This document shows positions 1 through 39,729 of a stretch of DNA of 64,000 nucleotides, piece after piece. The DNA comes from Psammoneis japonica (taxonomy: Eukaryota): the NCBI GenBank assembly GCA_008632985.1, contig QPGO01000086.1:186001-250000 (forward strand). Direction: 5' to 3'. Position 1 is the first letter of the stretch, and every line of letters begins with the position of its first letter. The notes beneath the pieces were generated by a model. It worked only from the letters and a program-made list of their open reading frames with translations. It searched no databases and was not told the origin of the DNA. Position numbers and translations under genes: made by a program.

Positions 1-49
1 GGACCTGGTTGCAAACCAGTTCACAGCAGTCCCGTGTCCACCAGAGGAG

Positions 50-1705: not shown

Positions 1706-4354
1706 GTCTTCGGCAACGGCCCGAGCTTGGGGACTCTGGGCCGAGAGCCTTTTCAGCTGCCACCGGCATCGTTGGCAGTGCTGCCACCCCCGCAGGCGGA
1801 GAGATCCACAGACAGCAATGGCCGCAGCACCTCACGTGCGCAGGCTGTTGCAGACGCTGTACAGACTGACAAACTGGGCAAGCGAACACTGCGTGACACA
1901 CAATTGCTGCGTCTTAGAGGACCAAGTCACTTGTTGCGTCGCCGCAGCGGCAGAGGGGACTGGGGACCGTTGCACCGCACACGCAAGCACCCAGCCCACA
2001 GGCTGCTGCAAAACTGCAAGCACCGCGGCGTCCCCACAACCCTCGCAGACGCACCTTGGACACCTCAAGAGCTTGAAGCAAGTTTGGCCAGGGGGCCACA
2101 CAAGTCCGCTCACGAACATGTCGAGTTCCTGCGGGAGGACATGGCCGGCTACGTCGACAAGGGTTTCTGGGTGGTCCTCCCATGTGAGGACATGAAGAAT
2201 GCCCCAGGATTGCGGCTGAGCCCCATCGGCGTGGTGCCCCAGCATGGTCGGCGACCACGACCAATCGTCGACTGCACCTTTTACGGCACCAACGACGCGA
2301 CTCAGCCCAACACCCTGATGGAAGCCATGCAGTTCGGACGCACCCTGGACCGTTTGCTGTGCCGCATTTTGCTGGCAAATCCATCGCACGGCCGGGTGTA
2401 CCTCATGAAAGTGGACCTCGCTGATGGCTTCCATCGGATGCACCTTAACCCCAATGATGCCCAACGACTCGGGGTGGTTTTCCCACATTTGCCGGGCGAA
2501 CCCCCTTTGGTGGCCATGCCCACACGGTCACCCATGGGATGGGCCAATTCGCCACCGTGTTTTAGTGCCGCCACCGAGACGGCAGCGGACCCAGCTGACT
2601 TACAGCCAGTGCGCGCCGCGACGGCGCCACCACACCCATTGGAGCAATTGGCATCCAGTCGGGTGCCAACCCATGTGCCCCCACCAACTTCACCACCCGC
2701 AACAATCGCCATGCCAATTCCGACGTCACCGGACCCACACCTCAACCCGAGCCGCCGCCGGCGCCTGGCCTACATCGACATGTGCGTCGACGACTTCATT
2801 GGCGCCGCGCAGGGGTCCGCCGCAGCCCGAAGAAACACACATCGTGTGTTGTTGCACACAATCGACGATGTCTTCCGCCCCACGGATTCGAACGACGTTG
2901 CTGCCCGCAAAGAGCCCGCATCAGTCAAAAAGCTCCGCAAGGGTGACGCCACATGGTCTACACAGAAAGAGGTGTTAGGCTGGTCAATTGACACCATGGC
3001 AATGACACTCCAACTTGCCCTTCACTGGCGTGCACGTCCACACGACACACTCTACAAGGACTTCCCCCGCACATGCAAACGCGTCACCGTCCAGGATTGT
3101 CAGAAACTCCTGGGAGAACTGCGTTCCCTCGCGGTGGCCATGCCCGGCTCGTGAGGTCTGTTCTCCAAATTACAGGAGGCCCTCCGCCACACTGCACCGG
3201 ATTCACGCATCCGACTTGCGGCCAACGTACATTCCACACTGGACGATTTTCGTGATCTGCACCAGACCCTGGACTCACGTCCCGTCTGCATCCAAGAGCT
3301 CGCACCACTGCCTCCAACTGTGCATGGCTGTCACGACGCTGCCGGCCACGGGGCTGGCGGGGTGATCGCACCAACACCCACCGCAGTCCCACGAGCCACC
3401 AAGCTACGCTGTTCCTCTGGCCGGCGTCGCATCCAACGTGATGCAGGCCCTGTCGCGTGGTGCCTGCGATTCCCCAAGGACATCTCCGACTCACTCGCCA
3501 CGCATGAGAATCCACACGGCCCCATTGCCAACATCGACCTCGAACTAGTCGGCAGCATCGTCCACACCTGCGCAGCTGCCGACACTTGCGACATCCGCGA
3601 GCGCACCAACCTAAACCATGCCGACAACCTTGGCACCATGTGTTGGCAACGCAAGGGATCAACTGCCACAGTCAAACCGGCTTCAAAGCTCCTCCGGCTC
3701 CAAGCATGCCATCAACGCCAACATCGTCACACAGGCCTCCATGATCACCACCCGGGCACTTGGAACCGAGCGGGTGACGACGCTTCGCGCCTGCAACACT
3801 TGTCTGACGTCGCGTTCCTTTCTTGTTTGAGCTCCACTTGCCCACAGAGCAAGTCTTGGCGTCTGTGGACCCCGCCACCCGAACTGCGTTCTTACATGAT
3901 CTCGGCACTGCGCAAGAAGCAGTGCAACGCGGCATCACCTCTTCCCGAGCCTCCGCCGCCGACACCCACTGGAACCTTTGGATCGACTTTTGCCGCCAAC
4001 TGGCCATCAGTCCATTTCTCGAAGACACCAATGATCCCATCCTCTTCCTCCAAGTGTTCCTCCATCGATTCCGCACCGGTGTCATCACACCAAGAGGCAA
4101 TCCCGTCTGGGCGCGCACCGCTGAGGATGCCCTGCGGTCGGTTGGGCAGACGTTCGCTGCAATGGGGTCCGCGGACCCACGTCTCACACCCCAGGGCGAC
4201 ATGGATTTCCGTCTTGCCCGCCAAATCCGTTTTTACAAGAAACAGGATCCGCCGCCCGACCGCGTTAAACCAGTCCCAGTCATCGTCCTCCTCTGGATCT
4301 TGCACGCCGCTGCCCTTGGCAACAGCGCCGGCACCAAGGCCATTGCGGATGTGA
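1706..4354 (+). pseudogene. Reverse transcriptase-RNase H ORF with one in-frame TGA at 3152-3154
   Basis: RLSPIGVVPQ, KVDLADGFHRM, PMGWANSPPCF, CVDDFI, KEVLGW; reads through the TGA as PGS*GLFSKLQEAL into RNase H motifs HDAAGHGAGG, DLELVG, DN, NRAGDDASR (ORF 3320 is in frame with ORF 50). Confidence 0.9.
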
Positions 4355-5001
4355 TCGCAATCACCTTTTTCTTTTTGCTTCGCCCGGGTGAATGCACAGC
4401 CATGCCATCTGACACCACTCCGTTTCGCCTGGCAGATCTTTGTTTGACCTCGGGCGGAGCACATTTGAACCTCTTTTCCACCGAGGCCCCTGCCCTCTTC
4501 GCCGCCACCCTCAGCTCCCTCACTTTCACCACCCAGAAAAATGGCGTTCGCGGCGAAGTCATTGCGCACGGCCTGTCAGGCCACCCAGACCTGTGCCCAA
4601 CCAGGGCCCTCGTCTGCCGAGTTGTTCACTTGCGCACCTGCGGAGCGCAACCCGACACCCCCCTGGGGGTGCACTTTGAGAATGACAGGTGGCACGCCGT
4701 CTCCCCTGCCGACATCACGTCGGCACTTCGCACCGCCATTGTTGCCCCAGGTCCCGAGAACCTGGGCTTCACACTGGCCGATGTCTCATCCCGCTGCCTT
4801 CGTGCAGCAGGCGCAACGGCGCTGTTGTGTGCCCATGTCGACACCGACCTGATCCGTCTCTTAGGCCGGTGGCGCTCTGACGAGATGCTGCGCTGCTTGC
4901 ACCTACAAGCCGAGCCCACCATGCGTGGCTTTGCACAAGCCATGCTCGCTGGGGGCAATTTCGTGCTTCACCCGAATGCTGAAGCACCCATTGCCCCGTG
5001 A
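3823..5001 (+). pseudogene. Tyrosine recombinase of the retrotransposon; catalytic Tyr replaced by Cys
   Basis: FFFLLRPGEC, QKNG, LCPTRAL, CLRAAGATAL, LGRWRSDEMLRCL. Confidence 0.9.
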
Positions 5002-5100
5002 CAGTGCTCCACCAGCCCTCCAGACGGGCCCACCCGCCCAATCCCAATGCATGTTTGGCTGGCTGCTGCACCGCCTGCACATCAGTGGGTGGCGCTGGAA

Positions 5101-5310
5101 GCCCTGCCGTCCAGCTTTGGGCAGGGAGAAAACCTTCACAGCGCTGGCAAAGCCATCTCCACTCCAAGTGCACAATGCATTCCATGAAGTTTTACATCAC
5201 TTTAGAAGAGAGCGCGCGACCAGTGGTTTGAACCCACCGTTTCACCCCAGAAGCACGCTCGTCCATCCCCGATGCGAAGCGCGCATGAGCAAAGCGGTGG
5301 CAACCGCTGT
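5101..5310 (+). repeat. Split direct repeat B1 (210 bp)
   Basis: Matches 5498-5707 except at 8 dinucleotide sites. Confidence 0.95.
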
Positions 5311-5497
5311 CCTCATCCAGTGCCAGAATCGGGGAGAAGACCCATCACCTGTTGAACCACGTGCGCACGTTGAACGTGCTGCAAGGGTTGGTTGTTGTTT
5401 TTCTTCGGTCACCGGCCTGTCTCATTCTTTCAAGATCGACAAAGACAAGCCGCTGTCGTCAGCGCAGTTTGATCGCTCCCACCTCTCCCACCCTCTG

Positions 5498-5707
5498 GCC
5501 CTGCCGTCCAGCTTTGGGTGGGGAGAAAACCTTCACAGCGCCAGCAAAGCCATCTCCACTCCAAGCACACAATGCATTCCATGAAGTTTTACATCACTTT
5601 AGAAGAGAGCACGCGACCAGTGGTTTGAACCCACCGTTTCACCCCAGAAGCGCGCTCGTCCATCCCCGATGCGAAGCACGCATGAGCAAAGCAGTGGCAA
5701 CTGCTGT
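5498..5707 (+). repeat. Split direct repeat B2 (210 bp), probable element 3' end; the 5311-5497 spacer is the putative A2
   Basis: Direct repeat of 5101-5310. Confidence 0.95.
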
Positions 5708-6824
5708 GAGTCAGACGGTCATGTGGCGCACATTGAATGCAAAAATGGGACAGGCGCGGACAAATGAATGTACAATGCAGTGCAGCGGTGACTCTGCCAG
5801 CTGCCGGTAGCCAGCTGCTGCTCTCTCTAAAAGAGAGTGGCGCAGTCGAGTAAAGAGGGCCTGCTCTGGCTCTAGCTGGGGCCCCACAGCACCAGTTGAT
5901 GTTCATTGAATTCAATTTTACATGCCGAAGTTAATCGTCACTGCTTTCTCGATGACACTGGACGGCAACAATCTCTGTGTTGTGTGCTGCTGCAGCTTGA
6001 GAGTTGCGACAGTCACCGAAATTCCCCAAATCCATCAGGACTTGACTTCAGACTTTGTCGCACTCAGGGATTGGAATCTGCAACCTGAGGGGAGGGCTTG
6101 GTTCAACATCGTGGGTCATTGGCGCCAGCACTGCATCCACTTGTTGTGCATCATGAGGCTGAGTTGACTCAGAAATTGAGTCGGGAATGATCAGATCTTG
6201 TGCAGCAAACTTTGCACATGTTCCTGTGCACAAAGCTGTGCAGGTGCTGCAGGCATGTGCCTTGCACACTTGTGGAACCCAGTGCTGAGGAGGGTTTGTC
6301 TCAGCCGAGCCCAATGAAAATGGTCCAAGCAATGAGGTGGAGACCAATGAGGTGGGTTGAAAATGGCCAAGAACAACCCAAGCATGGAGGGTGGATGACA
6401 GGGAGGGGGGCTTCTGCCCACCCAGAAGGCCACACCATGACAAGCTTTGGTCGTTCTTGGCCAATGTCAACCCCATCAAGAAGTTGCAACCAAGGTGACT
6501 GCATTGATTGCAAAGGAAGTGTGAGTGGGGTCTCTGGCTGTGAGGATTTTTGTGTTAAAGCACAAACACGCAATTGCATAGAGGGCATTTCATGTGCAAG
6601 ACTTCAGTGCAGGTGCGCAACGAGGACGGTTTGGCTCGCTGTCTTTCTTGGTTCTTTCAAAACACAATCTAGTCTACTAAACTTCGAACGCCACATTTTT
6701 GTTGATCTTTTGATTTCCTGGAACAGAGAAAGACAGAAGGGACAGTTGGACGTCAAAACTAAAGGATAACAAAATGCAAGCTACTTTAAAGTCCGAGGCA
6801 TTTCAGATTTCACAACATTGCCTC

Positions 6825-8837
6825 TCAAGCAGCAGCACTGCAGTCGGCGTCGGCACAATGACGATACTCAGATTTCGAAATCATTTCCTTGGCAGCCTCA
6901 TCTCCAACCAACGCATGCAGCAGCCTACGACCTCGCAACTGTAAGTCGTCGTAATGGGGATGATGTGTAATCCCACACCACACGCAGTCCACAACTCTCT
7001 TGAGCAATTGTTCATCTTCAACACACCATCCAGTCGATTCCAGCGAGTGCTCAAGTGTCCTACAACCCGAGGAGTAGATTTTTGTCGAGTCCTTGTGGGC
7101 ATGCATGGCCTCCGCAGCGTTCTCGATAATGGCCGGGATAAATGCGCCGCCTTTCTCATAAACAAAAGATTGGATAACGGAAAGAGCTATCAGCTGCATG
7201 TCCTCATCGTTTACAAAGGATTTCATAACACCAACCATTCTTGCGAAGCCACCTCTCTAACGATTTTCCCAGTATAGTCTTCTTGTGTTTCAACCGTAGC
7301 CATGAGAGCCATAAGGACCTCGAACAAATGAAAATAGAACATTCTGGATTGGCCGAGGTGATTCATCGCACAGGTGATTGTATCCAAAAAATCAGCATCG
7401 ACGAGAGACATGGGAAATTTTTCCTCTTTGATTGCAGAAACAAGCTCCTGTGCGACCGCCAGCGCCTTGACGGGATTGCGAGATGGATGACGAAGTTCAA
7501 CTAGTTGGGAATTGAAATGTGACATAGAGTGCTTTGCCAACATCTCGTTTGAAGCGTCCGCACCAATCAAACCTTCCAGCACAGATCGACCGACTACGGC
7601 AGATTCATTGTCATCCCAATGCTTCGCAACCCCGGAAGAAACGCAGTTGATGCATTGGTCAAAGAGTGCCTCGTCTTGACAGAGAAATCAAGAGCAACCA
7701 ACGCCTCACGAATCGCCTGGCAAGATGACCTCAAGACAAACGCCGAGTCTTCATGGTTGCTCATAATCTTGATTGTGCTTTCGAGCACAGTGTTGGCAAT
7801 GTCTGCCCCCTTCTTTGCATCAATGCTATTCAAGCAGAAAAAGCGATAAAGCTCGAGCGCCGCCCACTGACGCCTTTCGTCTTCCGGAAAACTGTTAACG
7901 ACACAAAGAGCGCTTTCGAGGCCGCCAATACGAAGAATATGTTCCGTATAACCCTTGCCTTTGTCGTCGAGGCCCATGAACAAAGCGAGCATCAAACAAA
8001 GTCGTTCACAGACCTCTTGGGTCTGTCCACCATTATTCAGTGAAGCAATAGCCATTTCAAAAAATCCGCCGTCGACTAGTGCTCTTGACAAACCCGACTT
8101 GGCAACAACTGTGACTGAGACAAAGAGCCGTTGGCGTCCGACGCACTGAAAGACGGATTGCTCAGTTTCTCTAGCCGACGATGGAGAGAGAGTATTGGGT
8201 CAAACGCCTCAACCAAGACCGGAATATTCTTCTTCAATTCCTCACTATCAGGAGGGTAGTTTGAGAGCAAAACCTCGAGACAACTTTTGCACCGACGCAT
8301 CAAATCATTACTAAATGAAAATTCCAGCAAGCGCGATGCCCATACTAGAAGTGGACCACCAAAACCAGCGATCGCGGATGAGTCTTTGTGAATTTCCATA
8401 GCTGTGACAGTACATTCCGTCGCTATTTCAATGGCGCTCGTTTCGCTGCTGTTCTGTATGAAAAAGAAGAGGCACCCAACTCCCGTCATCTGAATGGTCT
8501 CGTCCGTCACAAATGTATCCATCAGACAAATTACGCTTTCAAGGCCGCCCTTTTCAATGATTTCTTCTGTACAATCTTCGTTTGAAATCATGAACATACC
8601 GAGCATCTGAATGAGATATGCGTAAAAGGAGACGCTTTGCCCATAATGATCCATTGCAGAAATGATTGTCTCAAGAAATCCGGCGTCGGTGAGTGACTGT
8701 GGAATTTTATCCTTCCATCTGCAGTATTCGAAAAGGTCGTCTACCGCTTTTTCTGAATTTGAGTAGCTCGAGGGTTTGCGAAGCTCCTCCAACGCAGATA
8801 GGATGTGAGGAGGCACTTCGCCGGGTGGTGTCGTCAT
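6825..8837 (-). CDS. ARM/helical-repeat protein with three internal repeats, broken by about 3 frameshifts (assembly error or pseudogene); paralog of 37629-39658
   Basis: ORFs 8076-8879, 7594-8091, 7223-7582 and 6825-7238 are colinear with the paralog; shared MTTPP start, repeated L.EL..PS / DAG..E.II.AM / GGLES motifs, and terminus SEYRHCADADCSAAA. Confidence 0.75.
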
Positions 8838-14959: not shown

Positions 14960-15980
14960 TGCACCCTCCGCTCGCTGTCGGCATTTTCCATGTTGCATGT
15001 TATGTTGCCATCGTTCTGCTGCATTGATGTTGGTGGCAGCTCAACTTTTGATGGACGTTGACCTGTTAAAGAAGGGAGAGGCAACCTCAGACATGAGTGG
15101 CAACACACCAACACACAACACCAAGGACCACAAAAAGGAGCGCTGAGAAGGAATGTCATGAGTGGTGACAAAGTCTTCCAGCTCTTCTGCAAAGCCCGCA
15201 TCATCTAGCTCAAACAGCAGAACCAACCCCCGCTGGAAGGCTTCGTTGACATCGCTTCCTCTGCCGCCATTGTGCTGCAAACAGCAACGCTCTCAGACTT
15301 CCAGAAATTGTGCACAGGTGCATGAGCTGCTCCTGTGGCAGGACAATTTGTTCTGGTGACAACTTTGAACAATTGAGGTCTTTTTGGGTTAGAGAAAAGA
15401 AGTGCAAGGATTTGGTGTGCAGCTGCGGCGGGTCAGCACGACACTCCAGAGGCTCCGTTCTTGCAAACATTCTGAAGGAGAGTGGCCAGGGGAAACCAGA
15501 AAAGAAGGGGCACAGGTCTTGAATGAGCATGCCAACATTGGCGATGATGCAATGACCATCGGTGCACTGGGTCAGTCCTGTTTGTGTGACTGGGAATGCT
15601 GGAGGATGAGAAAAAGGCCTTTGAGCTTTTCAGGCATGCTTGCAACATGGGTTGTGCTCATTCTGCTGCCAACCTTGTCACCTGCTGCAACAATGGAGTG
15701 GGAGCAAAACTGCACCGAGCAATGGCCATGAAGTGAAACAAAGCAGAGGCCAAAAGAGGCTTTGCTGGTGAATGTCAGTGCAATCTTGGCAGATTGTCAA
15801 TGAGTCCTTGACCTTTGTCAAGGCCTTTGGCAGCCCATTCTTTGAGTGCTGTGAACAGTGAGGAGTTGGATGAAACAATTTGGGGCCACCAGGTTGCCAC
15901 GGGTGGTGGAAATTGATTCGAGAGACGATCCGAGGTGCACAAATCGTCTGTTGTCGTTCGCACACGTGCAGACGATTTAT
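14960..15980. other. TpA-depleted, TG/CA-rich block; probable decayed repeat
   Basis: Very few TA and reduced CG compared with flanking genes; no credible ORF. Confidence 0.6.
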
Positions 15981-17323: not shown

Positions 17324-18463
17324 ATGAATGAGACGCAACAAGAACACGGACATGGTTGTCAACCGTCGTGGCTCTCAACAGAGTCGTATGGCTTGATCGT
17401 TTTGGTATTATCGGCCGTATTGTTTTCCGTCATGGGAACCTTTCTCAAGCTCGCGACGGACACAGGCTTACCATCCACGCAAATGGTTTTCTTTCGGGCT
17501 TTCTTTCAAGGCTCCGTGGTTGTGATTTGCGCGTGTTTTTGCAGAACCGCTCAAGGCAATCTCGTTATTACAAGACCGCTTGGTGATACACGAGAAATCA
17601 GCAAGATTGTCATATTGAGAGGTGCCATTGGAGGAATGGGGTTTTGTTTGTACTTTTTTACATTAAGCGCACTGCCTCTTGGCGATGCGATTGCGACTCT
17701 GTCCTTGTATCCAATTGCAACCATTTTCTTTGGAAGATTCTTTTTGGGAGAGCCCATCAAGTTTCTTCATGTGATTGCGGCGATTGCCAGTGTCGTTGGA
17801 ACAATATTGATTGCGAGTCCATCATTTATGTTTGGCCCACAAGAACAACAGAATAATAGCGATGTGAATCCAATTGGATACGTGACGGGTGTTTTGGGTT
17901 CATGCTTTGCGTCCGGTGTCGTGACGCTCATTCGAAAGGCAGGCATGGTGGGTGCCCATACGCTCCAACTCTTGCTTTCCTGGGCATCCTTTGGACTCTT
18001 GTTCAGCCTATTCTTTGGATTGATACCGAGTGTTGTGCTGAACAGCAATGACGACGCATCATGGCAATGGCCAAACAATTGTTGGTTGTACATTTTCGCC
18101 GCCTGCACGATTGGATCAGCGGCACACTTTATGCTCAATTACGCCGGTCGATTGACGCCCGCCAGCTTGGCAGCCATTGCACGGTCCACTGACATTTTAT
18201 GGGCCTATCTGTCTCAGGTTTGGGTCTTTGATGAAATTCCTACAAGCAGAACTTGCGTGGGCGTTTTGCTCATTTGTGCTGCCCTAGTAGTTGTCATTTG
18301 CGTTCAACGACGAGGTGTACAAGAAGAAAGCAGTGGTAATGTTCCGGTTGGAGCTGAAAAGATACCAACCCATGATTTCATCGAGGAGAATTGTCAAGTT
18401 GAAACAGGTATAGAATTGGACAGTGCAAAGGGCAAGTTAATGAACGGCTCAGCGCAGAACTAA
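17324..18463 (+). CDS. EamA/DMT superfamily transporter (SLC35G-like)
   Basis: About 10 TM segments; LRGAIG, LPLGDA, FFLGEPI, LIASP. Confidence 0.9.
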   Translation: MNETQQEHGHGCQPSWLSTESYGLIVLVLSAVLFSVMGTFLKLATDTGLPSTQMVFFRAFFQGSVVVICACFCRTAQGNLVITRPLGDTREISKIVILRGAIGGMGFCLYFFTLSALPLGDAIATLSLYPIATIFFGRFFLGEPIKFLHVIAAIASVVGTILIASPSFMFGPQEQQNNSDVNPIGYVTGVLGSCFASGVVTLIRKAGMVGAHTLQLLLSWASFGLLFSLFFGLIPSVVLNSNDDASWQWPNNCWLYIFAACTIGSAAHFMLNYAGRLTPASLAAIARSTDILWAYLSQVWVFDEIPTSRTCVGVLLICAALVVVICVQRRGVQEESSGNVPVGAEKIPTHDFIEENCQVETGIELDSAKGKLMNGSAQN

Positions 18464-18774
18464 ACGGTCTCAACGCGACACAGCGACACACCTTGTCAGC
18501 ACGCATACTCAACTGCCTACCAGGATGGGTCATTCTTCCCATGCCAATAGCGAATAAGGGGGACAAGGATTGATTATGGGGTAGGTGCACTACTTTGGAA
18601 GTCACTCTGCTACTGTCTTTGTATGTTCAATGCGAGCCACGAGTAGTTTCAGAATGTACATACGTTTATCTATGACAGGAGGTTAGTTCACCCAGTGCTG
18701 TTTTCCAACTCCGTCGTAACGGTTACATCTAACTCTGCCTTTTCCTAATCTAACTTTTAGGTCGATATCTGTAG

Positions 18775-19452
18775 CTAATCATCTGACTCGTCGTCATCGA
18801 CCTCATCTTCCAACAACAACTCATCGTCATCGAAGTCATCTTCCGACTCTTCCAACAGTAACTCATCTACTAACTCGTCGTCGACTTTATCCGCTTCCTG
18901 TTTCCCTTCTGGATCTTTTCCCCTCTGTGGTTCACCAAGCCTCCGTTTAGGGCATCTCACTGTGAATCTCTTTTGAATAATGAATCTTGTACTCCTCTTT
19001 TTAGGGGAACCGCCACAGCCGTTGCTTCCCCAGACCTCTCCGTAGACCTTCATGCTCACATCTTGTCTCCACCTGGGAAACCTGGGAAATGAACAGACGG
19101 CATCAGTAGCAATGTCGCGAAAGGGACGATCGGGGTAGTCGGAGAAAGATCTACACTTGACCGGTGGGTCGTTCCCGTTGTTTGTAGTGACGGAATGCGT
19201 CATACATTCTCTTGCTTGGCGGTACGCTCGTTCCCGAATCGTATTGGGAATGTAACTGCCTCCCAAGCCCGTTACCCTGAATTCAAAGGGCCGCACGTGA
19301 CGTGGCCGGCTGCCATAAGCTGTGGATACGGTAAGACGGTATGCCGCTTTGCAGGAGCACTTGTATGTCTTGGCGGCGCACGCCATGACAAGCAATGTGG
19401 AGAGCGACATGCGTAGGCATGAGATCCAGTTTAGGGATAGTGCAGTCTTCAT
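18775..19452 (-). CDS. Secreted Cys-rich cationic protein with RRL site and acidic tail (copy 1)
   Basis: Signal-like N-terminus; Arg-rich Cys-containing core; KRRLG followed by an Asp/Glu tail; intact paralog at 26865-27539. Confidence 0.8.
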   Translation of the reverse strand: MKTALSLNWISCLRMSLSTLLVMACAAKTYKCSCKAAYRLTVSTAYGSRPRHVRPFEFRVTGLGGSYIPNTIRERAYRQARECMTHSVTTNNGNDPPVKCRSFSDYPDRPFRDIATDAVCSFPRFPRWRQDVSMKVYGEVWGSNGCGGSPKKRSTRFIIQKRFTVRCPKRRLGEPQRGKDPEGKQEADKVDDELVDELLLEESEDDFDDDELLLEDEVDDDESDD

Positions 19453-20105
19453 TGTTCTGTTTTTTCTAAGTCACACTTGATTTAATCTTTACATCTGTTG
19501 GATGTGTGCTTTTGTAGTTTGAGCTCCGAAGCTTGCCGAAATGCAATTTTGCATCGCGTAAGCTACTGATTTTAGTGGTATATTTCACATCAAGAGTCGA
19601 CTCAAAGTCGCGATCGCGACTTTGTATCCCCATTCTAGCCAATGATGGGATAAACATGCACGAAAACGAGGAGCACTAAACCTTTGTCAATCTGCGTCAG
19701 GTATGCTATTGGTTTGAGTCTTATAATATTCTGCATCGCGAGTTGACGACTCAAAGTCGCACGAAGCGACACTTGCCACGAGCCAATTGTTGAATAGACT
19801 ACACTAGAAGACGCGATATGAAACGTTCTTTGACTAGAAGTCGCGATCGCGACATGAAACGAAATAGAATCGCACCGATGCTTAACATGATAGCAAGCTG
19901 ATTAAAGTCGCGATCGCGACATGAACGGGAAGATCAAAATTGTGGGAACAAAAAAATGTCGTAGGTCGCGGTTCTCGTGGGACTCGAAAAAGGGTCTTGA
20001 CTGTGGAAGACGGAAGGAGGGCAAGGCGAACGAGTGAAGAGGATTCTTTGTTACATGCCTGGTGCAACAAGGCGTTTCAGCCACAACAAAAGGGGCGTCA
20101 GTCGC
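19421..20105 (+). repeat. Gene-start/promoter segment, copy A (largely intact)
   Basis: Aligns with 20218-20932 and 27508-28412. Confidence 0.9.
19603..19624. promoter_or_regulatory. Perfect 22-bp palindrome CAAAGTCGCGATCGCGACTTTG, candidate cis element
   Basis: Identical at 27694-27715; core GTCGCGATCGCGAC recurs at 19840, 19907 and 28019; function is inferred only. Confidence 0.4.
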
Positions 20106-20217
20106 ATGAAGGGAAACTTGCCACGAGCAAATTGTTGAACAGACTGCACTGGAACCACTGGAAGTCACGACAGCATGAAACACGATCTTTGGCTGCTGGA
20201 AGCCACGATCATGACAC

Positions 20218-20932
20218 GAGATCCAGTTTGGGGACAGCCCAGTCGTCATCATTCTGTTTCTTCTAAGTCAAAATTGAGTGAACATTTGCATCTGACAGAT
20301 GCTTGTTTTTGCAATTTATGAGCTCCGAAGCTTGCCGAAATGCAATTTTGCATCGTGCAAGCTGTGCCACTTCAGCAAACTTTCACATCAAGAGTCAACT
20401 CAAAGCCGCGATCACGACTTTGCAACCCCATTCAATCCAATGATGGGACAAACATGCATGAAAACAAGGAGCGCCAAAGCTTTGTCAATCTGTGTTGAGC
20501 ATGCTGTTGGTTTGAGTCTGGCAATGTTCTGCATCGTGAGTTGACAACTCAAAGTTGCGCGAAGCGACACTTGCCACGAACCAGTTGTTGAATGGATTGC
20601 ACCAGAAGATGCAATGTGAAATGATCTTTGACCAGAAACTGCAATTGTGACATGAAACAAAACAGAATTGTGCTGATGCTTGACATGACAGCAGCTGCTC
20701 ATCAAGAGTTGCAATCATGGCACCATGAACAGGAAAATCAAAATTGTGTGTGAACAAAATGTCGCAGGTCACGGTTCTCGTGAGACTCAAAAAAGGGTCC
20801 TGACCAAGCAAGATGGGAGAAGGGCAAGGCAAATGAAGCAAATGAATTTCTCAGCAAAGAGAATTCTTTGCTGTGCGGCTGGTGCAACAGGTGCATTTCA
20901 GCCGCCACAACAAAAGGGGCATCTCAGTTGCA
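20218..20932 (+). repeat. Gene-start/promoter segment, copy B (TA- and CG-hypermutated)
   Basis: Colinear with copy A, with TA->TG/CA and CG->TG/CA changes throughout. Confidence 0.9.
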
Positions 20933-21499
20933 GGTGGAAACATGTCGTGTGTGAGGCTGTGTAAAAAATGCATTCTCAAGTGGAGGGAATCTCACTTTTG
21001 GATTTTTTGCTTGTCAGTCATGGCATTTTGTGGCTGTGCTGTCACCTGGGCCTGGTGTGCTTGATGGCTTCTGCTGCAGCCTCTTTTCAATGTGCTTTTT
21101 TTTCCAAATTGTGAGCTCCTCTGTCAGGGCTCTTTTTTCCAACTGATGTCCCAGATGTGTTTTTCCTCCATGGGTTTGCTGCAATGTGGGACTCTTGCCC
21201 ATGCTGCAGAGCTCATGACTGAAACTTCTCTCTGCCATTTTCCCCTCATGATCATGTCCAGATGCCATGTGTTCATCATGCTGCAATGCGGGGCTCTCTC
21301 CCCCATGCTGTGGAGCTTGTGATTGAAACTTCCCTCTGTTTTACTCTCCCCTCACGATCATGTCCACATGCCATGTTGTGCTTGTCATGGCCAACAAATG
21401 CTGCCACATGTTTCTCAAACAAAACCCAAGCTCTGCATTTGAAGGTGCTGCTGCGCTTCCACCCTGCAACTCCAGCAGCGAGCGCCAGCCCAACACACA

Positions 21500-24300
21500 C
21501 ACACACACAGCACACAAACTGCATCATGGCAGGGGCACTCAACAACTGGCCAAGATTGGTGTCACCCTCAGGTGATGCCCCACTGAAATGACTGGCAGTG
21601 GCATGCATGCTGTTGCAGCAAAGTGTCAAGCACCATGCTGATGCTTGACTTGACTGTGCAGTTCATGTGTGCAGAGTGAGCAAGATGTTCATCCGCAAAA
21701 TCCAACAAAAGCTCCCTGCCCTTTGCAAAGCCCACGCTGACGCAGGAGCAAAAAGCCTTGACTTCAGCTTTGGCACTCTGGTGTTGAGATGATTTTGCCA
21801 AGTTTCAGAGTCATGTGACCATGAGTGCAGTCATTGTGGAAATCCCAAAGTTCCTGCCATTGCCGCCCAATCCAGCCATTTCCCACTCAACAAAAGGCTG
21901 TGATGCAGTCTGCTGGCCAGAAGATGTGGCATCTGGATTTTGTCCCACAAGGAAGAGAAGTGACTTCTGAACAAATGGTGCCACCCAATGTTGCCATGAG
22001 AATGAAATGCCTTGACAAGGACACTTTGATGAATCTTGTCCAGGTGGAAAACTTCTTCACAAAACCACCAGAACACAAGAGCAGACAAGAGCAAGTCATG
22101 ATCATGCAGGGAAGGAGGTGTGTGGTGTGTGCATCAATGTTGTCACATTTCTTGCACAGGTGCCTTCCAACACCAGGCTCATCATTGTGTGGGGGCATCA
22201 AAGAATGTGGCCCCCATCTTCCATTGGGTTCTGACAGTGGATGCAGCAATTGTGGGTTGCAGCGGTGAGTGACTTTTTGTTTGTTCGCAACAAATCCTGA
22301 GTGAGCTTGACAGTGCTGATTTTCCTGCACACAATGTGTGACATCAACTTGGAGTGCACACTGTCCAGTTGATCAAAAAAAAAACCACATCAGATCTGCT
22401 GCACTTTTCTTGCATGCGCACTGCTGCAAGACAGAGCCCCAGAGGAGGGCTCTCTTCATCATCAGGTGAGGGACATGCAGCAAGGAATTTAGAGACATTC
22501 TAGACCAACAAGGAACTTTCACAAATGCAAATCTGCCCAACACAGAAAAGCCCCCTTTGGCAAAACTCTGTCAATTGAAAAAAAAACAAAGAAAGGAGAG
22601 AAGGCCACAAGCTTCAGCTTGATGTGGGGTGAATGTTGGAAGCTGAGCACAAGCCCAGTGGAGTCAACAAATGGCAAGACATTGACAGTGAGAGTCCTTC
22701 CAAAAGCACCATGAAAGTGAATGATTGAAACATTGCCACCTGCCACAGCTGGCAAAGACACCAAAGATTCTGCCATTTTGGCAAAGACCAGCACTCACAA
22801 GGTGAGAGATCAGCAGATGAGGAAAACTCCCACTCAGGCAAGGATGATGGAATTGCGTGTGAAAACAATCAAGAGTGGGAGGGCTGGATGGCAAAAAAAG
22901 GCTGTTGCACAAAAGGGCCAAATGTGACAATGGCTGTCATGTGCAGCATTTTCCACAGCTGGAGATGCCAGTGGAGAGAGAGGTCTGGAGCTGACTCCAG
23001 GTTGCTCACAGAGTCCACTGTGCCATCAGCCAGAGGAGAGTGTGCACCAAATCCCACAGCTGACCCAACACATGAAAGCTCTTCTGATGACTCACAACAA
23101 TGCACAGAGAAAGACACACACATGTCATTGGCAGCAGACACAGCCCACTGACCCAGTGGTTGCTGCAATTTCAAGGCATCATCCTTGCAAAATGGAGACA
23201 CATCATGTTTCTCAAATGGGTTCCCTGGCCTGTGTCACACTCTTGGACAGAGGTTTGGTCATCTCCACTCTCTTGTCCAAAAATGGCACCAATGGTGCCC
23301 TCCACTCCTTTCAACTCCCATCTCAGAAAATGTTGTTTCACTTGCTGGTGGTGGTGTGTGCACCCAGCAACACTCCAAAAGTCAATGTGATCCTTTGATC
23401 CTTTGTCATCCCCACACACAATTTCATGGGTGGCTTCGCTTCTAAACCTGCACCACTCAACACTCTCATTGCAAAAATCACATCATCCTGAGCAAGTGAA
23501 CAAGTTCTTGCACAGAATGATCCCATGCATCTGTTGCATGCAGCACTGCAGCCAGCATTGTCTTGTGCTGCATCAAGGAGAGTGCCCACTCCATGCGCAA
23601 AAACACATGTTCAGAGCCACTCTTGCCTGCAATCTCAAACAAATGGCTCTTGCTGCTGCCCCACTTTGTGCTCACCTTAAAACACAGTTGACAATTTGGA
23701 GTCACCCCCATGCAGCACTTCAACACAGGCTTGAGTCCCTCATGATGCACTGCTGCTGCTCCCAATGTAGATGACCTTGATGACTTCCCCACAGAACTCA
23801 ATTGTTCTGGTCACATTTGGCTCATCACACCCAGCAGTTCACCAAGAGCAACATTTCTTTTGTTCAGCCTTGCTCAACAGGTTTGTCCATGCTTTGCTGT
23901 TCACAAGAAGTGTTGTCTCACCTGTGCAGCTGCTGGGATGCTCAGCACCTTTCCTTCTGTGGCACAAATCAAATGCATCTTCAAAGCTCTGAGTCACAGC
24001 TGTTGGAGTCAGCTTTGTGCTGCCATTTTTTCAATCAACAACAACCTTGCACCCAGCATTTTTTTGAGTTCTCTGATTTCACCACAGTCAAACAAATTTG
24101 TCATTTGCTTCTCAACTTCTTGAGTGCACTGTGTTTTGGTTCACAAATGTGAGGCAACCTTCTTGTCAGCCCAAGTCAACCACAATGCGCCAACAAACCA
24201 TTTGAATTGCAAACAAGGACCAGCCTTGCTTCTTTTGTGTTTCATCTTCTTGAGCATGGCTGGGTTGATTTGAACAAGCTGCTGTTGCATTGGTGCACAC
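21500..24300 (-). mobile_element. Heavily mutated non-LTR retrotransposon (LINE) 3' relic; limits approximate
   Basis: Minus strand 22245-22189 reads CIHCQNPMEDGGHIL*CPH (CCHC knuckle with CGA->TGA), preceded by LINW..VKL..DLL and followed by IGWHHLFRSHFSSLW. Confidence 0.6.
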
Positions 24301-25755
24301 ATGGGCAGGTGTGTTCTGCGACATGCAAAATCAAATGAAGAATGGTGTCACACAGTCACCTTGGAGGTTGTGGTTGCACCCCACCAATCCCCCCCCCCCC
24401 CCCTGGGACAGTTCTTCCGATGGAGGCCATGACAACACTGCACTCGGAGTGTCAGATTCATGCCCTCTTTCAGAGTTCAAGCAGGTGGCAACTCTTTGGG
24501 CTGGGTGGCGAAGATCATCCTTGCTTGCAGCTGCTCACCACACCAAGAAAGCTTGCAAAATGCAAGAACACTGGTGTCTCTCACAGGGTTCATCCTCATT
24601 GCTGGAGGAGGTCTGCGATTGATCTGCAGATGGTTGAGGACTAGTGTGGGGAGTTGTTGATGTGCACAGAGCTGAGTTCACACTGGAGGACGAAGTCGGG
24701 CATTGTTTGGTCATCATGGTGTGGTCAGGTTGCTGTTTGCTGCTGCCTCCAGCAAAAGAAATTCTCTGCCGTGTGATGACCGTCGTCCGGTGATTTGTAA
24801 GTTGTAAGCGGCACAAAAACGAAGCACCATACGCACCACCATGGCGTGCGAGACCCAGCACTCTACTACGGTACTCCGTAACTATGAAGAGTTGGCTCAT
24901 AATACGTTGTGACCTTGTTCTATACACTATGAAGTACATTGTCATTGCTTGGAATTTTGATTTAAGGCGAAGGATTATCATGAGTATTACAACCAAAGTG
25001 ACGAATGATTTGCAAGTCGAAATTTCGATCTCGTACACAACCGAGCTCCAGTCGAAGTTGTTGAAGCCAAATTAGAATGAAACCAAGTCGTTATCAAAGG
25101 TTTATCCGGATATGTCAAAGTTGGGGGCTTCTGTGGCGCTTCCCAAGTCAGTTATTGGATGATCCAGCAACTTCAGAATCGTTGATAGAAAAATCACCAT
25201 GTTTCGCTCGGGAAGCAGCACCAAGATTTCGAGCGGCAGAAATTCAAGAATGAACAGCGTTGGGAGAGGGAAGAATACAAGAAAATTCTCGAGTACTTCA
25301 CATTATGGACCTTTTGAAAACCACTTTCAGAAAGATGCGCAAAAAACGCCCAACATGGCGAGTGCCGCCGACGCGCCAACAACCGTTGTATATTTTCCAA
25401 TGCCGCTAACAGACTACGTGACTCTTTCATCTACCGGTAAGAACACGAGGGCAGCTTCAATGTTGTCACAGAATGTCACACCCGGCAGTTCTTTGAGTTT
25501 TTCTCTCGGTCAAGCCGGGCCACACTCGATAGTGGTCTTGAAACCCTTCGTTCGAAAATAAAGTCACGCATTGTGAGAATGAAATCCACACATCTGTTTA
25601 AAGCTTTTCTGAGCCGGGTTGTACCGGAAAACATGGATTGTGTGTCTCTTGCTGCTCGCCCGGTCCGTCGCATTGCGAGGCGGCGACTCGATGTTGTGCT
25701 GCGCGGCATGCAACAACAGCGAAACGACTGAATTTACCGTATGATGCGCTTGGAC

Positions 25756-26552
25756 CAAGACCGCTCCGTGACACGCGAGAAATCAGCAACATCGTTGCAT
25801 TCAGAGGTGCCATTGGAGGAATGGGGTTCTGTTTTGCACTTTTATACAATGAGCGCGCTGCCTCTTGGCTGTGCCATTGCGACTCTGTCCTTGTATCCCA
25901 TTGCAACCATTTTCTTTGGAAGATCCATCAAGTTGCTTCATGTGATTGCGGCGACTGCCAGTGTCGTTGGAACAACATTGATTGCAAATCCATCATTTTT
26001 GTTTGGCCCACAAGAACAAGATAATAATATCGACGTGAATCCAATTGGATACATGACGGGTGTTTTGGGTGGGCGCGCGCTTTGCCTCCGGTGTCGTGAC
26101 GCTCATTTGGAAGGCATGCATGCTAGCCTGTTCTTTGGATTGCTCCCGAGTGCTGTGTTGAGCAACAATGACAATTCATCACGGCAATGGCCAAACAACT
26201 GTGGGTTGTATGTTTTCTCCACCTGCACAATTGGAGCAGCGCCACACTTCATGCTCAATTGCGCCGGACGCTTGACGCCCGTCAGCTTGGCAGCTATTGC
26301 ACGTTCCAGCGACATTCTATATGGGCCCATCTGTCTCAGGTTTGGGTCTTTGATGTAATTCCTACTAGCAAATCATGCGTGGGCGTTTTGCATTCAACGA
26401 CGAGGTTTACAATAAGAAAGCAGTAAAAATGTGCCGGTTGGAGTTGCGAACATACTAACCCGAGTTTTCAACGAGGAGAATTGTCAAGACGAAACAAGTA
26501 GAGAGTTGGGCGGTGCAAGGGGCAAGAGAATCAACGGCTCAGTGCAGTACGA
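25756..26552 (+). pseudogene. 5'-truncated, frameshifted copy of the EamA transporter
   Basis: Aligns to 17571-18463 with deletions and frameshifts. Confidence 0.9.
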
Positions 26553-26864
26553 AACGGTCTCACGGCGACACTGTGACATACCTTGTCAGCACGCATACTC
26601 AACTGCCCATCAGGCCAGGTCATTCTTCCCATGCCAAGAGCGAATAAGGAGGGATGAGGATAGATTATGGGGTGGGCGAACTACTGTGGAAGTCACTCTG
26701 CTACACTCTTTGCATGTTCAATTGAGCCACGAGGAGTTTCAGAATGTGTTTACGTTTATCTATGACAGGAGGTTAGTTCACCCAGTGTTGTCTTCCAACT
26801 CCATCGCAACGGTTACATCTAACTCTGTCCTTTCCTAATCTAACTTTCAAGTCGATATCTGTGG

Positions 26865-27539
26865 CTAATCGTCTGGCTCATCGTCATCGACCTCATCTTC
26901 CGGCTCTTCCAACAACAACTCATCGTCGTCGAAGTCATCTTCCGACTCTTCCAACAATAATTCATCTACTAACTCATCGTCGACTTGGTCCGCCTCCTGT
27001 TTTCCTTCTAGATCCTTATCTGTCTGTGATTCACCAAGCCTTCGACCAGGGCATCTCAGTGTGAATTCTTGAATGGTGAATCTTGTACTCCTCCTGCTAG
27101 TCGAACCGCCGCAGCCCTTGTTTCCCCAGACCTCTCCATAGACCGTCATGCTCACAACTTGTCCGGGGTCATTCCATGGGCAGACGGCTCCAGTAGCAAT
27201 GTCGCGAAAGTGACGATCAGGGTAGCCGGAGAAAGAACCCCCTCTACACTTGACCGGTGGATGGTTCCCATTGTTTGTAGTGACGGAATGCTTCATGCAA
27301 TCTCTTGCTTTGCGGTACGCTCGTTCCCTAATCGTATTGGGAAAGTAACCGCCTCCCGAGCCCGTTGCCTTGAATTCAAAGGGCCGCACGTTATGGCTGC
27401 CATAGGCTGTGGATACGGTAAGACGGTATGCCGCTTTGCAGGAGCGCCTGTATGTCTTGGCGGTGCACGTAATGACGAGCAGCGTGGAGAGCAACAATCG
27501 TAGGCATGAGATCCAGTTTAGGAATAGTCCAGTCTTCAT
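26865..27539 (-). CDS. Secreted Cys-rich cationic protein with RRL site and acidic tail (copy 2)
   Basis: Intact ORF; conserved SCKAAYRLTVSTAYGS, PNTIRERAYR, VYGEVWG, RRLGE. Confidence 0.8.
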   Translation of the reverse strand: MKTGLFLNWISCLRLLLSTLLVITCTAKTYRRSCKAAYRLTVSTAYGSHNVRPFEFKATGSGGGYFPNTIRERAYRKARDCMKHSVTTNNGNHPPVKCRGGSFSGYPDRHFRDIATGAVCPWNDPGQVVSMTVYGEVWGNKGCGGSTSRRSTRFTIQEFTLRCPGRRLGESQTDKDLEGKQEADQVDDELVDELLLEESEDDFDDDELLLEEPEDEVDDDEPDD

Positions 27540-28429
27540 CGTCCTGTCTCTTTTAAGTCAAACTTGAGTTAAACTTTGTTACATCTGTTGGATGTGTGTT
27601 TTTGCAATTTATGAGCTCTACAAATTGTCGAAATGCAATTGTGCATCGCGTTTGCTGCTTTTTTACTCTTATATTTCACATCAAGAGTCGACTCAAAGTC
27701 GCGATCGCGACTTTGTAGCCCCATTCGATCCAATGATGGGATAAACATACATGAAAACAAGGAGCTCCAAAGTTCTGTCGATCTGCGTCGTGCATGTTAT
27801 TGGTTTGAGTCTCATAATGTTTTGCATCGCGAGTTGACTCAAAGTCGCACGAAGCGTCATTTGCGGTGATTTAATTGTTGAAGATACTCAAAGTAGCGAA
27901 TGCGATATGAAACGAAATAGAATCGCGGCTCTTTTAAAAGCGATGCTAACCATGATTTAGAAGTCGCGATCTTGTGTTTTTTGTAACTCTTGTATTTCAC
28001 ATCTAGATTTGACTCAAAGTCGCGATCGCGACTCCTTGACTCCAATCGCGCCAACATTGGGATGCACATGCATGAAAACAAATAGCACTACATCTGTGTC
28101 GCGTGCGTTATTTGTTTGAGTCTTACACATTTTGCATCGCAAATTGACTCAAGGTCGCATGAAGCGGTTGCTGAATATAGATTGCCATACACTGCCTCCC
28201 GATCGCGATATGAAACGAAGCAGAATCGGACCTACTTTGAAAGCGATGCTTACCATGCTATTAGCTGATCGCGATCGCGACATGAAATAATGGAAAATCA
28301 AAATTGTGAGACGGCCGGCAGACGGCATTTTGTGTCTTGTGTCGGTCGCAGTTCGCGCGGTTCTCGTCGTGCGGGACTCGTCAGGTCATTAAGTCCCGAC
28401 CAAGCAAGACGGCCCATGGGGATTTGCAA

Positions 28430-31400
28430 GGCATGCAAGCAAGGAATGCGCGACGCAAATGGCAATGCGGCAAATGGCAAACCGGGATCTTTTCAGAAGT
28501 GTTTGGTGTGGTGTGGTTAGCAGCAAGGACAAACCTGTGGAAGATCGGACAGATGTGAATGACCACCAAGTTGATTTTGAGAATGGGGGGGGGGGCCACC
28601 AAGAAAAAGAAAACAAGGGTGTCGTCCATGTGCAAAAGAGCAAACCCAGCACGGGTCTTGCTGTCTTCCCTTTTCAGTTTTCAAGGTTTACCTCCTCCAC
28701 CCCCATCTTTGCACACACACTTGCACTGTCAGCACATGCTGTGGATGTGAGATGAGATCATGACAAGAAATTGAAGCCAGGAGCTTTTGATTTGATGATG
28801 GGCTGTGTTTTGCGGGGGGGGGAGGCTGGCGGTCTGCTGCTGGGGGCAGCAGCACACGTGCAAGATGAATGGCTGCTGGTCAGATCTCTTGGGAGGCCAG
28901 GAAACCCATGAAATGCATCACACTTTCAGTTTGTCCAGCGGCAGCACTTGAAAGCTGGCGCGCCTCAAGCTTTGATGAATGGCTGGGTCAAGAGCGGGGG
29001 CTGTGTGGCCTGTGATGTGCTGTTCTTCAAACTCCTCTGGCGTGCCAGTGGCACTCCTTGCACTGGAAATTGTGCAGTCATGCAAACAGGGAGAGAGGCA
29101 CAGAAGCAGACATCACTCTGCACGCACAACTTGGTTCAAGTCCAAACTTTCTTTGTCTTCCCATGAGCTGCAGAGCACCTCAGCACCAAGTTTGGCCTTC
29201 AAGTGTGTGGGGCTTGTTTGAACGGCTGGAGTTGGGAGTTGTCAAGGTGCTGTGAGATTTCACACCAACCATCATTGGGACAAGCCTGGCTGCACTGCAT
29301 CACCATCTGAGGTGGTTGGAAATGACAAATGATGCAGCGCTTGTCTCTTTTGTTGGAAACCTGCGCAATGGATCCCTTCTGTCAGCTGGTGCTTGATCAG
29401 CTGAAAGGGGGCCATGTCCAGATTGACACACTTTGCATGGACCAGCTTTCATGGATTCAGAGAAAAGGCAGCGAGAGTCACTCACACAACATGGTCTCCA
29501 AAAATGAACTGGGCCCCCCTTCTTGTGCATTGTGAAACCCTTTCAATGAGTTTGGGCTGCATGAGAGGTTTTCTGCTCCACAACCATGAGTGCAGAGGAC
29601 ATTCAAGTTCCACTCAGTGAGAAAGAGAAGCAAAATTTGGTCAATCAACAGTCTTTGTCTGAAGCTCTGGGCACACATGTGCACCAAGCAAGAAAGACCT
29701 GAGACACACCCTTGACAATGCTTGGTGTCATTGCCTCAAGAAATGGAGGAGGAGCTGTTGACAGCATCAATTGCCAAGTTGTTGAGTGACTGCATGAACA
29801 GCTTCTAGAGTTCATGAAGGCTCAGCCAGATGCACAATTCACCCCCCTTCAAGAGGAAGTGTGGCTGATCTTTTCTTGTGCCAAGGTGGCATCAGTGTGC
29901 AATTCCTTGAAGAGCACATGCAACCCTCACTTGGCAGAGCAGCTCCATGAGTGCACAGCTGAAGAAATGTCCAGCAAATTTGCAGACCCATGTTCATTGT
30001 GACAGTGAGAACCTGGAACACTTCAGGAGCAGTGCAAGTCATCACAAGCAGACTGCAGAGAAAAAGACAGAAGGATGATCCCAGCACTGCATCTTTTTGA
30101 TGAATCCTTGTTTGAGTCCACTGACCCAAACCTTTCACTTGCTTTGCATTGTTGAGCTGTTTTTGAAGGCAGAGAGACAGTGTGAGAATGTGAGAAGGAC
30201 TTCTCCAAGAACCAGGAATCTGCTTTTTTTGCCATCCTGTCAAATCAAAAACTCTGTCAAAAGCAGAGGCCATCACACTCGCCATTGTTTGCAAGTGGCA
30301 AGATTGGGTTGCAGCCAGAGCCACCATGGACACACCAACGAATTTCAGCTGATGATGTTGTCTGCTGCCTGTTGTGAGATGATGCCGACATGCTGCTTCA
30401 GGAGGAAAAAAACTTTGAGTTAAAAGAGGCAAAAAAAGTGCAGAGCTGCACAAGGAGGTGACCCTGGCTGTCTGCAAGATTGCTCTGAGCACCATGATCT
30501 TGCTGGAAGTGAGAAAGTTCACTCTGTTGTGCTGCTGAGATGATGGCAAAAGCAGCTCCTCCACTGTGCTTGGAAGGACCAAGCACAGCTCAGCATGGAT
30601 CTGGCCAGAGCTCTTGACAAATGCAGAAAAGAAGGGTGTTGGCTCTTTAAACTGTTGACTGTCTGCAGCACGAACTTGTCAGAGCAATCTTGAGCCCAGG
30701 CCACAAATGTCCAGCCAAGATTTTTGACCAAACTGCCCAGACTTGTAAAAAAGTCTTGGAGCACATTTGCTGGAGCTTGAAGCCCCTTAGAATGTGGGCA
30801 AGTGGGTGCTCACTGCAGCCCACAGCAGCCTCAGCAAATTCCTTGCTGTCTGCAGCAGAGCACTTTGGGCTGCATTGCCCACCCAATGCACTCATGATGG
30901 AAGACCAGTGTCCTCTCCACTTCCAAGCAAATTGACATGTGACAATGAGTCAGACAAGAAGAGCATGCAAAAAACAAACCACTGCCCATGTCTGCCATGA
31001 GAAGAGTTGTGAGGAATGTCAGCGGAAATCTTCTTGGAAATGATCAGCGCAGCACACAAGCCAAGCAAGCAGATGCAAGAAACTCTTGCAAAGCCCACCT
31101 GAGATGGCAGAACAAGAGACCACAAAGCAAACTCAGCACTCCAGAGCAGTGTGGATTGTGATCCTCTGCTGCTCTCTTGCTTCCTGGCATGTTCTGCCTG
31201 CCTGGTGCTCCAGCTTCAATGGCCGCCCCATCTTTCCCAGCAGCAGCCAAGGCAGCATCCTGTGCATTTTTGCAAGTTCCCAAAAGAAGAAGAAGAAGAA
31301 GAAAAAGCAACCAGGGCAACACTCCTCATTGCATCTGTCGCTGATGCAGCTGCGGCTTTTTTCAAATGTGCGCGGCAACAGATGGCTTGGCAGGTGGTGT

Positions 31401-31530
31401 GTGGTGTCATGATTTCACGATTTTCCCACACAGCAGGCACCCCTCAGTCTTGCCCAGAGAGGCTCTTGATGTTGTGGCCATGACTGAAGAACTGAACAAA
31501 TCAAAACAAATCATGTCCAAGCGTCGACTG
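28430..31530. other. TpA- and CpG-depleted block; decayed repeat of unidentified family
   Basis: Only a handful of TA in about 3 kb; ORFs are Cys/His/Met-rich noise. Confidence 0.7.
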
Positions 31531-39658: not shown

Positions 39659-39729
39659 GCCCGAGGTCTTTTCAGTTTGGCTATTCTCTGCTGTGCAGGA
39701 AGTAGTAGAAGCATATACCTATATGGTAC

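Follow-up and report, generated by a model that had tools for sequence, protein, structure and literature searches.

One of three copies of a gene-flanking sequence has lost nearly all of its TA and most of its CG steps in a 64-kb window of Psammoneis japonica DNA

A 64,000-nucleotide stretch of Psammoneis japonica DNA (assembly GCA_008632985.1, contig QPGO01000086.1, positions 186,001 to 250,000 of the forward strand, hereafter the window) contains DNA of two kinds, as judged from dinucleotide ratios per kilobase (kb). In host-like DNA the observed/expected ratio is ~0.4-0.9 for TA and ~1.0 for CG. In TA-depleted blocks, here called islands, it is 0.00-0.1 for TA and as low as 0.04 for CG, while TG/CA reach 1.7-2.1 and the GC content is near 48%. 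This raises the question of whether the islands had this composition from the start or were rewritten and, if rewritten, on which molecule and by which rule of targeting. The locus offers a natural control: three copies of one sequence family (A, B and C) lie at or near the 5' ends of two paralogous orphan genes, and one of them, copy B, is converted. As only one of three copies from the same family is converted, composition at origin cannot explain TA/CG-free islands. The copies show the spectrum and the direction of the change, that it took place on DNA, that it ends at a sharp edge, and that it struck B and not A. The best explanation, which we consider probable, is that B is a local tandem duplicate lying in a silent island, that its TA and CG steps were rewritten on DNA, and that the targets were set by position. 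The genes and copies are as follows.

18775-19452, minus strand: orphan gene, paralog 1, within the open reading frame (ORF) 18775-19470; copy A covers its 5' end and upstream region.
19421-20110, plus strand: copy A, the gene-proximal unit, unconverted (690 bases, 31 TA, 45 CG).
~20100-20205, plus strand: partial unit, converted, matching A 19755-19860 (95 bases counted, 0 TA, 3 CG).
20206-20932, plus strand: copy B, the distal tandem copy, converted (727 bases, 2 TA, 20 CG).
26865-27539, minus strand: orphan gene, paralog 2, the paralogous ORF, with copy C at its 5' end.
27508-28474, plus strand: copy C, the outgroup, unconverted (in 27508-28412, 905 bases, 40 TA, 63 CG).

Copies A and C are parts of a longer duplicated segment (17571-19825 versus 25756-27914, 81.1% identity over 2286 columns by self-BLAST), which spans the 3' portion of an EamA gene, a 231-amino acid minus-strand ORF and the upstream region of that ORF. 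The paralogous ORFs are 73% identical, show only in-frame indels and have a ratio of non-synonymous to synonymous substitution rates (dN/dS) of 0.39 over 206 codons, in keeping with A and C being the 5' ends plus upstream regions of paralogous minus-strand genes. The original prediction, made from the sequence alone, called the repeated segment a promoter. This label is right insofar as the upstream region is present, but the copies start inside the coding sequence (the conserved ATG of paralog 1 is at 19452, 32 bases into copy A). Copy B, which is an orphan, breaks off ~20 bases inside the coding start.

By self-BLAST, A and B (19418-20099 versus 20215-20923) are 77.6% identical over 713 columns, and B and C (20197-20592 versus 27485-27882) are 78.1% identical. 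Copy C contains a tandem duplication of its own (27659-27971 and 27980-28276, 72% identity), and its homology to the tails of A and B stops near 28474. The A/B region has two rearrangement junctions. In the partial unit, all five TA steps of the matching part of A are gone (two are CA, two are TG and the fifth is CA beside a gap), and the CG steps of A have become TG (two), CA (three) or GG (one). The strings quoted in the original prediction, the A-versus-B word pairs included, are all present where it placed them, and the short fourth converted fragment that it reported at 20116-20154 is real and longer. Its claim that three copies exist, and that only the one next to a transposable element block is converted, agrees with our counts as far as the copies are concerned (A and C are normal, with 31 and 40 TA steps, and B keeps 2), but the transposable element label is unverified.

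The palindrome TCGCGATCGCGA occurs exactly six times in the 64 kb, where ~0.004 occurrences are expected. Three are in A (19608, 19841 and 19908) and three in C (27699, 28020 and 28269), and all three B counterparts are destroyed. Judged by this placement, TCGCGATCGCGA may be a regulatory site of the orphan gene pair.

The fate of individual sites was read from an A-B alignment of 682 columns with 125 substitutions. The 30 aligned TA steps of A correspond in B to 15 CA, 9 TG and 5 other dinucleotides, and one is kept. The 43 aligned CG steps of A correspond to 16 TG and 14 CA, and 13 are kept, so that 30 of 30 CG losses are transitions to TG or CA. There are no changes from TA to CG or from CG to TA, and the reverse cases, in which A has TG/CA where B has TA or CG, number 0 for TA and 3 for CG. 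The TA loss is complete from the first bases of B. The CG loss is graded, with 10 of 19 CG steps kept before 20580 versus 3 of 24 after it (Fisher p = 0.007 for a cut chosen post hoc; Mann-Whitney p = 0.027). The heavy TA/CG conversion that had been claimed for B is thus nearly complete for TA, but partial (30/43) as well as graded for CG. Within one stretch of 727 bases and one span of time, B lost 29 of 30 TA steps against 30 of 43 CG steps, so the erasure of TA was the faster. The TA conversion in B carries no signal of strand bias (15 CA versus 9 TG, p = 0.31). Under an outcome rule of ATA to ACA and TAT to TGT, ATA sites gave 6 CA and 1 TG and TAT sites gave 2 CA and 1 TG, which are very few sites.

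The direction of the change follows from a three-way comparison over the 490 columns common to A, B and the copy C sequence C1. Transversion differences number 27 between A and B, 42 between A and C1, and 45 between B and C1. Identity in a purine/pyrimidine code, which is blind to transitions, is 94.3% for A-B, 91.7% for A-C and 91.2% for B-C, and A groups with B at 9 of 11 transversion-informative sites when the second internal unit of C is used as a fourth sequence. A and B are therefore sisters with C outside, so the changes arose on the B lineage, and because C is the outgroup, states common to A and C are ancestral to B. This sister grouping by transversions, with C as a true outgroup, confirms the direction proposed earlier, from TA to TG/CA on the lineage of B.

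On branch B, changes are seen at 19 of 38 TA sites versus 19 of 234 A/T sites of other context (Fisher p = 3.7e-9, odds ratio 11.3), and 17 of 54 CG sites changed versus 7 of 150 other G/C sites (odds ratio 9.4, p = 1.4e-6). The original prediction was to be given up if TA sites on this branch changed no faster than other A/T sites; they changed faster. Neither of the other branches has an excess, with 0/38 TA and 3/54 CG sites changed on branch A and 5/38 and 4/54 on branch C1. Among 19 ancestral TA steps, B lost 18 (9 to CA, 5 to TG and 4 otherwise), A lost none and C1 lost five, one of them to TG. Among 27 ancestral CG steps, 17 were lost in B and three each in A and C1.

Copy B is the beginning of an island. 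We segmented the window with three states defined on pyrimidine-purine (Y-R) steps, with emission values set by hand from the window's own counts. The segments, together with the first island as a whole and its body, are listed here.

Up to 20052: host-like DNA.
20054-24767: first island, 4.7 kb, nearly without TA or CG; copy B is its first 0.8 kb.
20054-20577: segment with TA lost and CG partly kept.
20582-24767: segment with TA and CG both lost.
20933-24767: island body beside B, for which no Pfam family and no relative within the window was found; transposon origin unverified.
24770-28483: host-like DNA.
28494-31518: second island, TA and CG both lost.
6-6553, 15017-15898 and 51123-59704: further islands.

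In the island interior (21001-24000), observed/expected ratios per kb are 0.02-0.05 for TA, 0.04-0.14 for CG and 1.9-2.1 for TG. Y-R steps are as dense in islands (0.23-0.25 per base) as in host DNA (0.24), and the GC content is 44.6% in copy A versus 45.0% in copy B. With equal Y-R density and unchanged GC, the island composition is accounted for by transitions within Y-R steps. The few TA steps left across the window's islands are unusual in their flanks: 4 of 79 have an A before or a T after, compared with 867 of 1694 TA steps in host DNA and with ~35-42% of the TG, CA and CG steps inside islands (Fisher p = 2e-18 for the deficit among surviving TA). ATA/TAT, rather than any TA, seems to be the context that is erased most efficiently.

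The edge of the first island is sharp. In the tail of A, the last TA is at 20052 and the last CG at 20103, and the first demonstrably converted sites are at ~20105-20138, so that TA loss switches from 0% to ~95% within fewer than 90 bases. The edge (20053-20138) falls on the junction between A and the partial unit (~20100-20115), within ~35-85 bases. At the paralogous locus, the second island starts at 28494, ~20 bases past the end of copy C.

The conversion is also seen in contigs from a sequencing run, X1, which is possibly the source sample and is thus not fully independent. X1 contigs reproduce 19597-20348 without differences and 20326-21474 with one difference; over 19597-24403, at a word depth of ~57-73, they differ by one substitution and one inserted letter. 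Between 17000 and 32000, X1 and the window differ at 12 single letters, 10 of which are in the two islands, and 7 of these 10 set TA or CG against TG/CA. These contig-level differences may be alleles of a recent or still-active process, and the process is real and probably recent. The seven positions are 21171, 29428, 30165, 30292, 30339, 30386 and 31190. A second run, X2, has no contig over 19505-24514, which has no bearing on silence.

The first block of the window (1-6123, GC 61%) separates the two losses. It has lost TA (38 TA among 1591 Y-R steps) and keeps CG at the host level, so TA erasure and CG decay are separable. This block is a retroelement with named relatives in a diatom. Its 1050-amino acid ORF (2-3151) is a reverse transcriptase with 269 homologues (best 8e-187, many of them with RVT_1), in which Pfam detects RVT_1 only at E = 0.042, and a reverse transcriptase profile built from these homologues matches only 1775-4330. 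Four of four conserved tyrosine columns are cysteine or histidine in this protein. The ORF downstream has the look of a tyrosine recombinase (DIRS-like) by eye, unconfirmed by Pfam. A young tandem pair (5100-5310 and 5497-5707) shows 12 differences, all of them transitions; three sites pair a TG with a CA between the two copies, and five more set CG against TG/CA. The TG-versus-CA sites are as expected if ancestral TA or CG steps were converted independently in the two copies.

The body of the first island has the word depth of single-copy DNA, except at a (CA)n run (21481-21520). A depth peak at 21008-21508 was considered as the end of a repeat element and ruled out, as it corresponds to this run. 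We found no relative of 20933-24767 in the window by BLAST, by purine/pyrimidine-coded BLAST, by transition-tolerant local alignment or by tblastn with 404 island ORF pieces, and no homology between the first and the second island (the local alignment score is within the shuffle range). The second island (28494-31518) gave no Pfam family in six read-through frames. Likewise, of 124 island ORFs with 90 or more amino acids, the 90 outside block 1-6800 were scanned with Pfam and gave no family; from the 34 of that block, three long ones were scanned separately. At the right edge of the island (24758), several X1 and X2 contigs match the window rightward and have other sequence leftward, which suggests related copies elsewhere without the island.

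These observations can be joined in the following explanation. B and the partial unit would be a local tandem DNA copy of the orphan gene's first coding bases, 5' untranslated region and upstream region, formed from A after the A and C loci had separated. The distal copy, B, would have come to lie within the silent 4.7-kb island, where two processes would operate. One would change TpA to TpG or CpA (A:T to G:C at 5'-TA-3', on either strand) and the other CpG to TpG or CpA. As the TG/CA end state could be attacked by neither process, TG and CA would pile up in Y-R steps at a steady GC content. Position would decide what is targeted, whereas sequence, foreign origin and duplication would not. 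Gene-proximal A is untouched although it is of the same sequence family as B, and at both paralogous loci the island edge is at the distal end of the unit. The island would be a silent chromatin domain. By analogy with known systems, the CG part would reflect deamination of 5-methylcytosine in CpG-methylated DNA, and the TA part would be the work of an enzyme, most likely a TpA-preferring deaminase that turns adenine into inosine, which is read as G, as has been proposed for Bigelowiella natans.

Several findings weigh against this explanation. First, the island body beside B (20933-24767) contains no Pfam family in its 22 ORFs of at least 90 amino acids or in six stop-read-through frames, and neither a transposon nor a viral domain is recognisable in it. 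Second, transitions at non-TA A/T sites are also raised on branch B (15/234 versus 6/234 on branch A). Third, nine sites have TA or CG in A alone and TG/CA in common to B and C1; these are gains in A or parallel losses. Fourth, 5 of the 29 TA losses in B are other than simple transitions, three of them in the poorly aligned stretch 20373-20380. Finally, the edge coincides with a junction, so the conversion of B possibly preceded or accompanied its joining to A, rather than spreading into B in place.

This last point leads to a different history, in which B was converted at another place or an earlier time, along with the partial unit and the island, and all three were then joined to A by ectopic or unequal recombination. 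The coincidence of the conversion edge with the A/partial-unit junction, in a region with two rearrangement junctions, is what such a history would leave behind. However, B is closest to the adjacent A and not to C, as local tandem duplication predicts, and the island of the paralogous locus starts at the equivalent place without such a junction. We regard an import of this kind as unlikely and, even if it took place, a DNA-level conversion of host-derived sequence would still have occurred.

A genome-wide neutral bias against TA and CG would make the islands old unconstrained DNA at equilibrium, with A and C kept by selection, and the islands do fill gaps between genes. Yet branches A and C1 have no TA/CG excess despite 5-11% divergence, and both a 79-base intron (~18682-18760) and host intergenic DNA keep many TA steps. 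Nor would such a bias account for a rise from no TA loss to nearly full loss across the narrow edge. Copy A is itself evolving (20 changes at 384 non-TA, non-CG sites of its branch), yet none of its 38 TA sites changed, which means that promoter selection does not explain why its TA persists. We therefore consider this bias an improbable source of the islands.

A process like repeat-induced point mutation (RIP), whereby duplicated DNA is recognised by homology and then mutated, draws on the fact that B, a duplicate of ~700 bases, closely resembled A at the time of its formation. Against it, A lost none of its 19 ancestral TA steps and the internal tandem pair of C is untouched; since A and this pair were spared, duplication is not the trigger. 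The island body, moreover, has no second copy in the window and single-copy word depth, and the direction is the opposite one, with TA destroyed rather than made. A RIP-like origin is very improbable.

Pre-integration editing of an RNA or cDNA intermediate (of the ADAR or APOBEC type, or as reverse transcriptase error) finds a parallel in the retroelement among the TA-depleted blocks (1-6123), but B is in tandem with its source, in the same orientation, and abuts it. B is a tandem DNA duplicate that contains upstream sequence, which argues against RNA editing or reverse transcriptase error, as the original prediction had reasoned; no poly(A) tail, target-site duplication or intron loss was seen that would mark B as a retrocopy, and the TA/TG and CG/TG island differences between X1 and the window point to change once the DNA was in place. 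Such editing is extremely improbable. The same holds for a sequencing or assembly artefact from modified island bases: the 12 single-letter differences within 15 kb, most of which fall on CG/TG and TA/TG sites, could be read in this way, but X1 contigs (X1 may be the source sample) reproduce 19597-24403 almost to the letter.

Among known systems, the closest to the conversion of B in its island is in Bigelowiella natans, where TpA-targeted hypermutation of integrated giant-virus and virophage DNA has been described in a 2026 preprint (Mettrop et al., bioRxiv 10.64898/2026.01.13.699255). This is the only published precedent for TpA hypermutation that we found. The preprint reports a TpA spectrum measured experimentally and a de novo rate ~1000x background in mutation-accumulation lines (10.64898/2026.01.13.699255). 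Common to both cases, as far as the preprint describes them, are the change from A:T to G:C at TpA on either strand, giving TpG or CpA, the restriction to discrete regions, and the long-term outcome of scarce TpA with abundant CpA+TpG. In B, transitions from TpA to TpG or CpA make up 24 of the 29 A-to-B losses and 14 of the 18 ancestral losses on its branch.

The two cases differ in several respects. B. natans is a chlorarachniophyte (Rhizaria), whereas the host here looks like a diatom. The reported targets in B. natans are integrated viral DNA that still holds TpA (Rho 0.45), whereas the islands here are at 0.00-0.1 for TA and include a host-derived duplicate, B coming from the 5' region of a host gene and not from a foreign (viral) source. 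CpG loss accompanies TA loss here and is not mentioned in the abstract, results or discussion of the preprint. The mutation rate was measured in B. natans but here is deduced, with saturation giving a lower bound (TA 29/30, CG 30/43).

RIP acts in Neurospora and other ascomycetes, where it changes CpA to TpA and so makes TA, strikes both copies of a duplication and depends on a RID-type cytosine methyltransferase. The conversion seen here resembles it as a set of DNA-level, context-specific transitions that ruin repeated or selfish DNA and leave a dinucleotide signature. The B. natans preprint, in its discussion, likewise draws a comparison with RIP. Unlike RIP, it destroys TA, spares one copy of a pair and also strikes unduplicated island DNA. 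No TG or CA of A is TA in B, and A and the internal duplicates of C are intact.

The decay of methylated CpG is a second partial likeness, as 30 of 30 CG losses in B gave TG or CA and the loss is graded, heaviest deep in the island. It covers only the CG half, however, since block 1-6123 lost TA and kept CG. Methylation in diatoms is described as mainly CpG and located on repeats (PMC5124317; PMC2806351). Full-text literature searches and term look-ups in diatom transposon papers found no description of TpA erasure in diatoms. To the B. natans precedent this locus adds a host-derived three-copy control, an edge at the promoter unit in two paralogous loci, and the relative speed of TA and CG loss.

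A wider reading is possible, and we offer it tentatively. A domain-wide DNA adenine mutator might rewrite TpA (best in ATA/TAT) in any DNA of a silent domain, not sparing duplicated regulatory sequence that belongs to the cell itself, with the neighbouring active promoter bounding the domain. The same mutator might be present in Rhizaria, as an old defence across stramenopiles, alveolates and Rhizaria (SAR) that runs opposite to RIP and is independent of CpG methylation.

The start of paralog 1, MKTALSLNW, resembles a signal peptide by eye. No Pfam family was detected in the orphan gene, and a search among proteins of 118-377 residues gave no homologue at E <= 0.001. An X2 contig over 17166-19470 skips a 79-base GT..AG interval (~18680-18760, plus strand) downstream of the EamA stop codon, so X2 behaves like cDNA. 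Position 19470 thus marks the end of a transcript and lies 18 bases upstream of the ATG at 19452. With this contig running to 19470, the EamA gene seems to overlap, in its transcripts, with the convergent orphan gene. The window contains long intron-poor ORFs with JmjC/cupin, EamA, BTB and NB-ARC/TPR domains (Pfam). The 0.9-kb island 15017-15898 lies between two genes and is without terminal repeats; one of its frames is similar by eye to Sel1-type repeats, with cysteine where tyrosine is expected, and no Pfam family was detected in it. The segments 6824-7658 and 38834-39659 are an old paralog pair with 63% identity and show no polarity.

For the host, these results mean that conversion comes to a halt no more than tens of bases from a promoter unit that works. 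The islands also affect how such genomes are read: they inflate divergence-based repeat ages, they mask transposon proteins from domain searches and, because TAA and TAG stop codons vanish in them, they contain long false ORFs. If an adenine deaminase acts on DNA here, nature would have supplied a TpA-specific A-to-G editor of DNA, and this host would be a second lineage for a defence that has so far been reported once.

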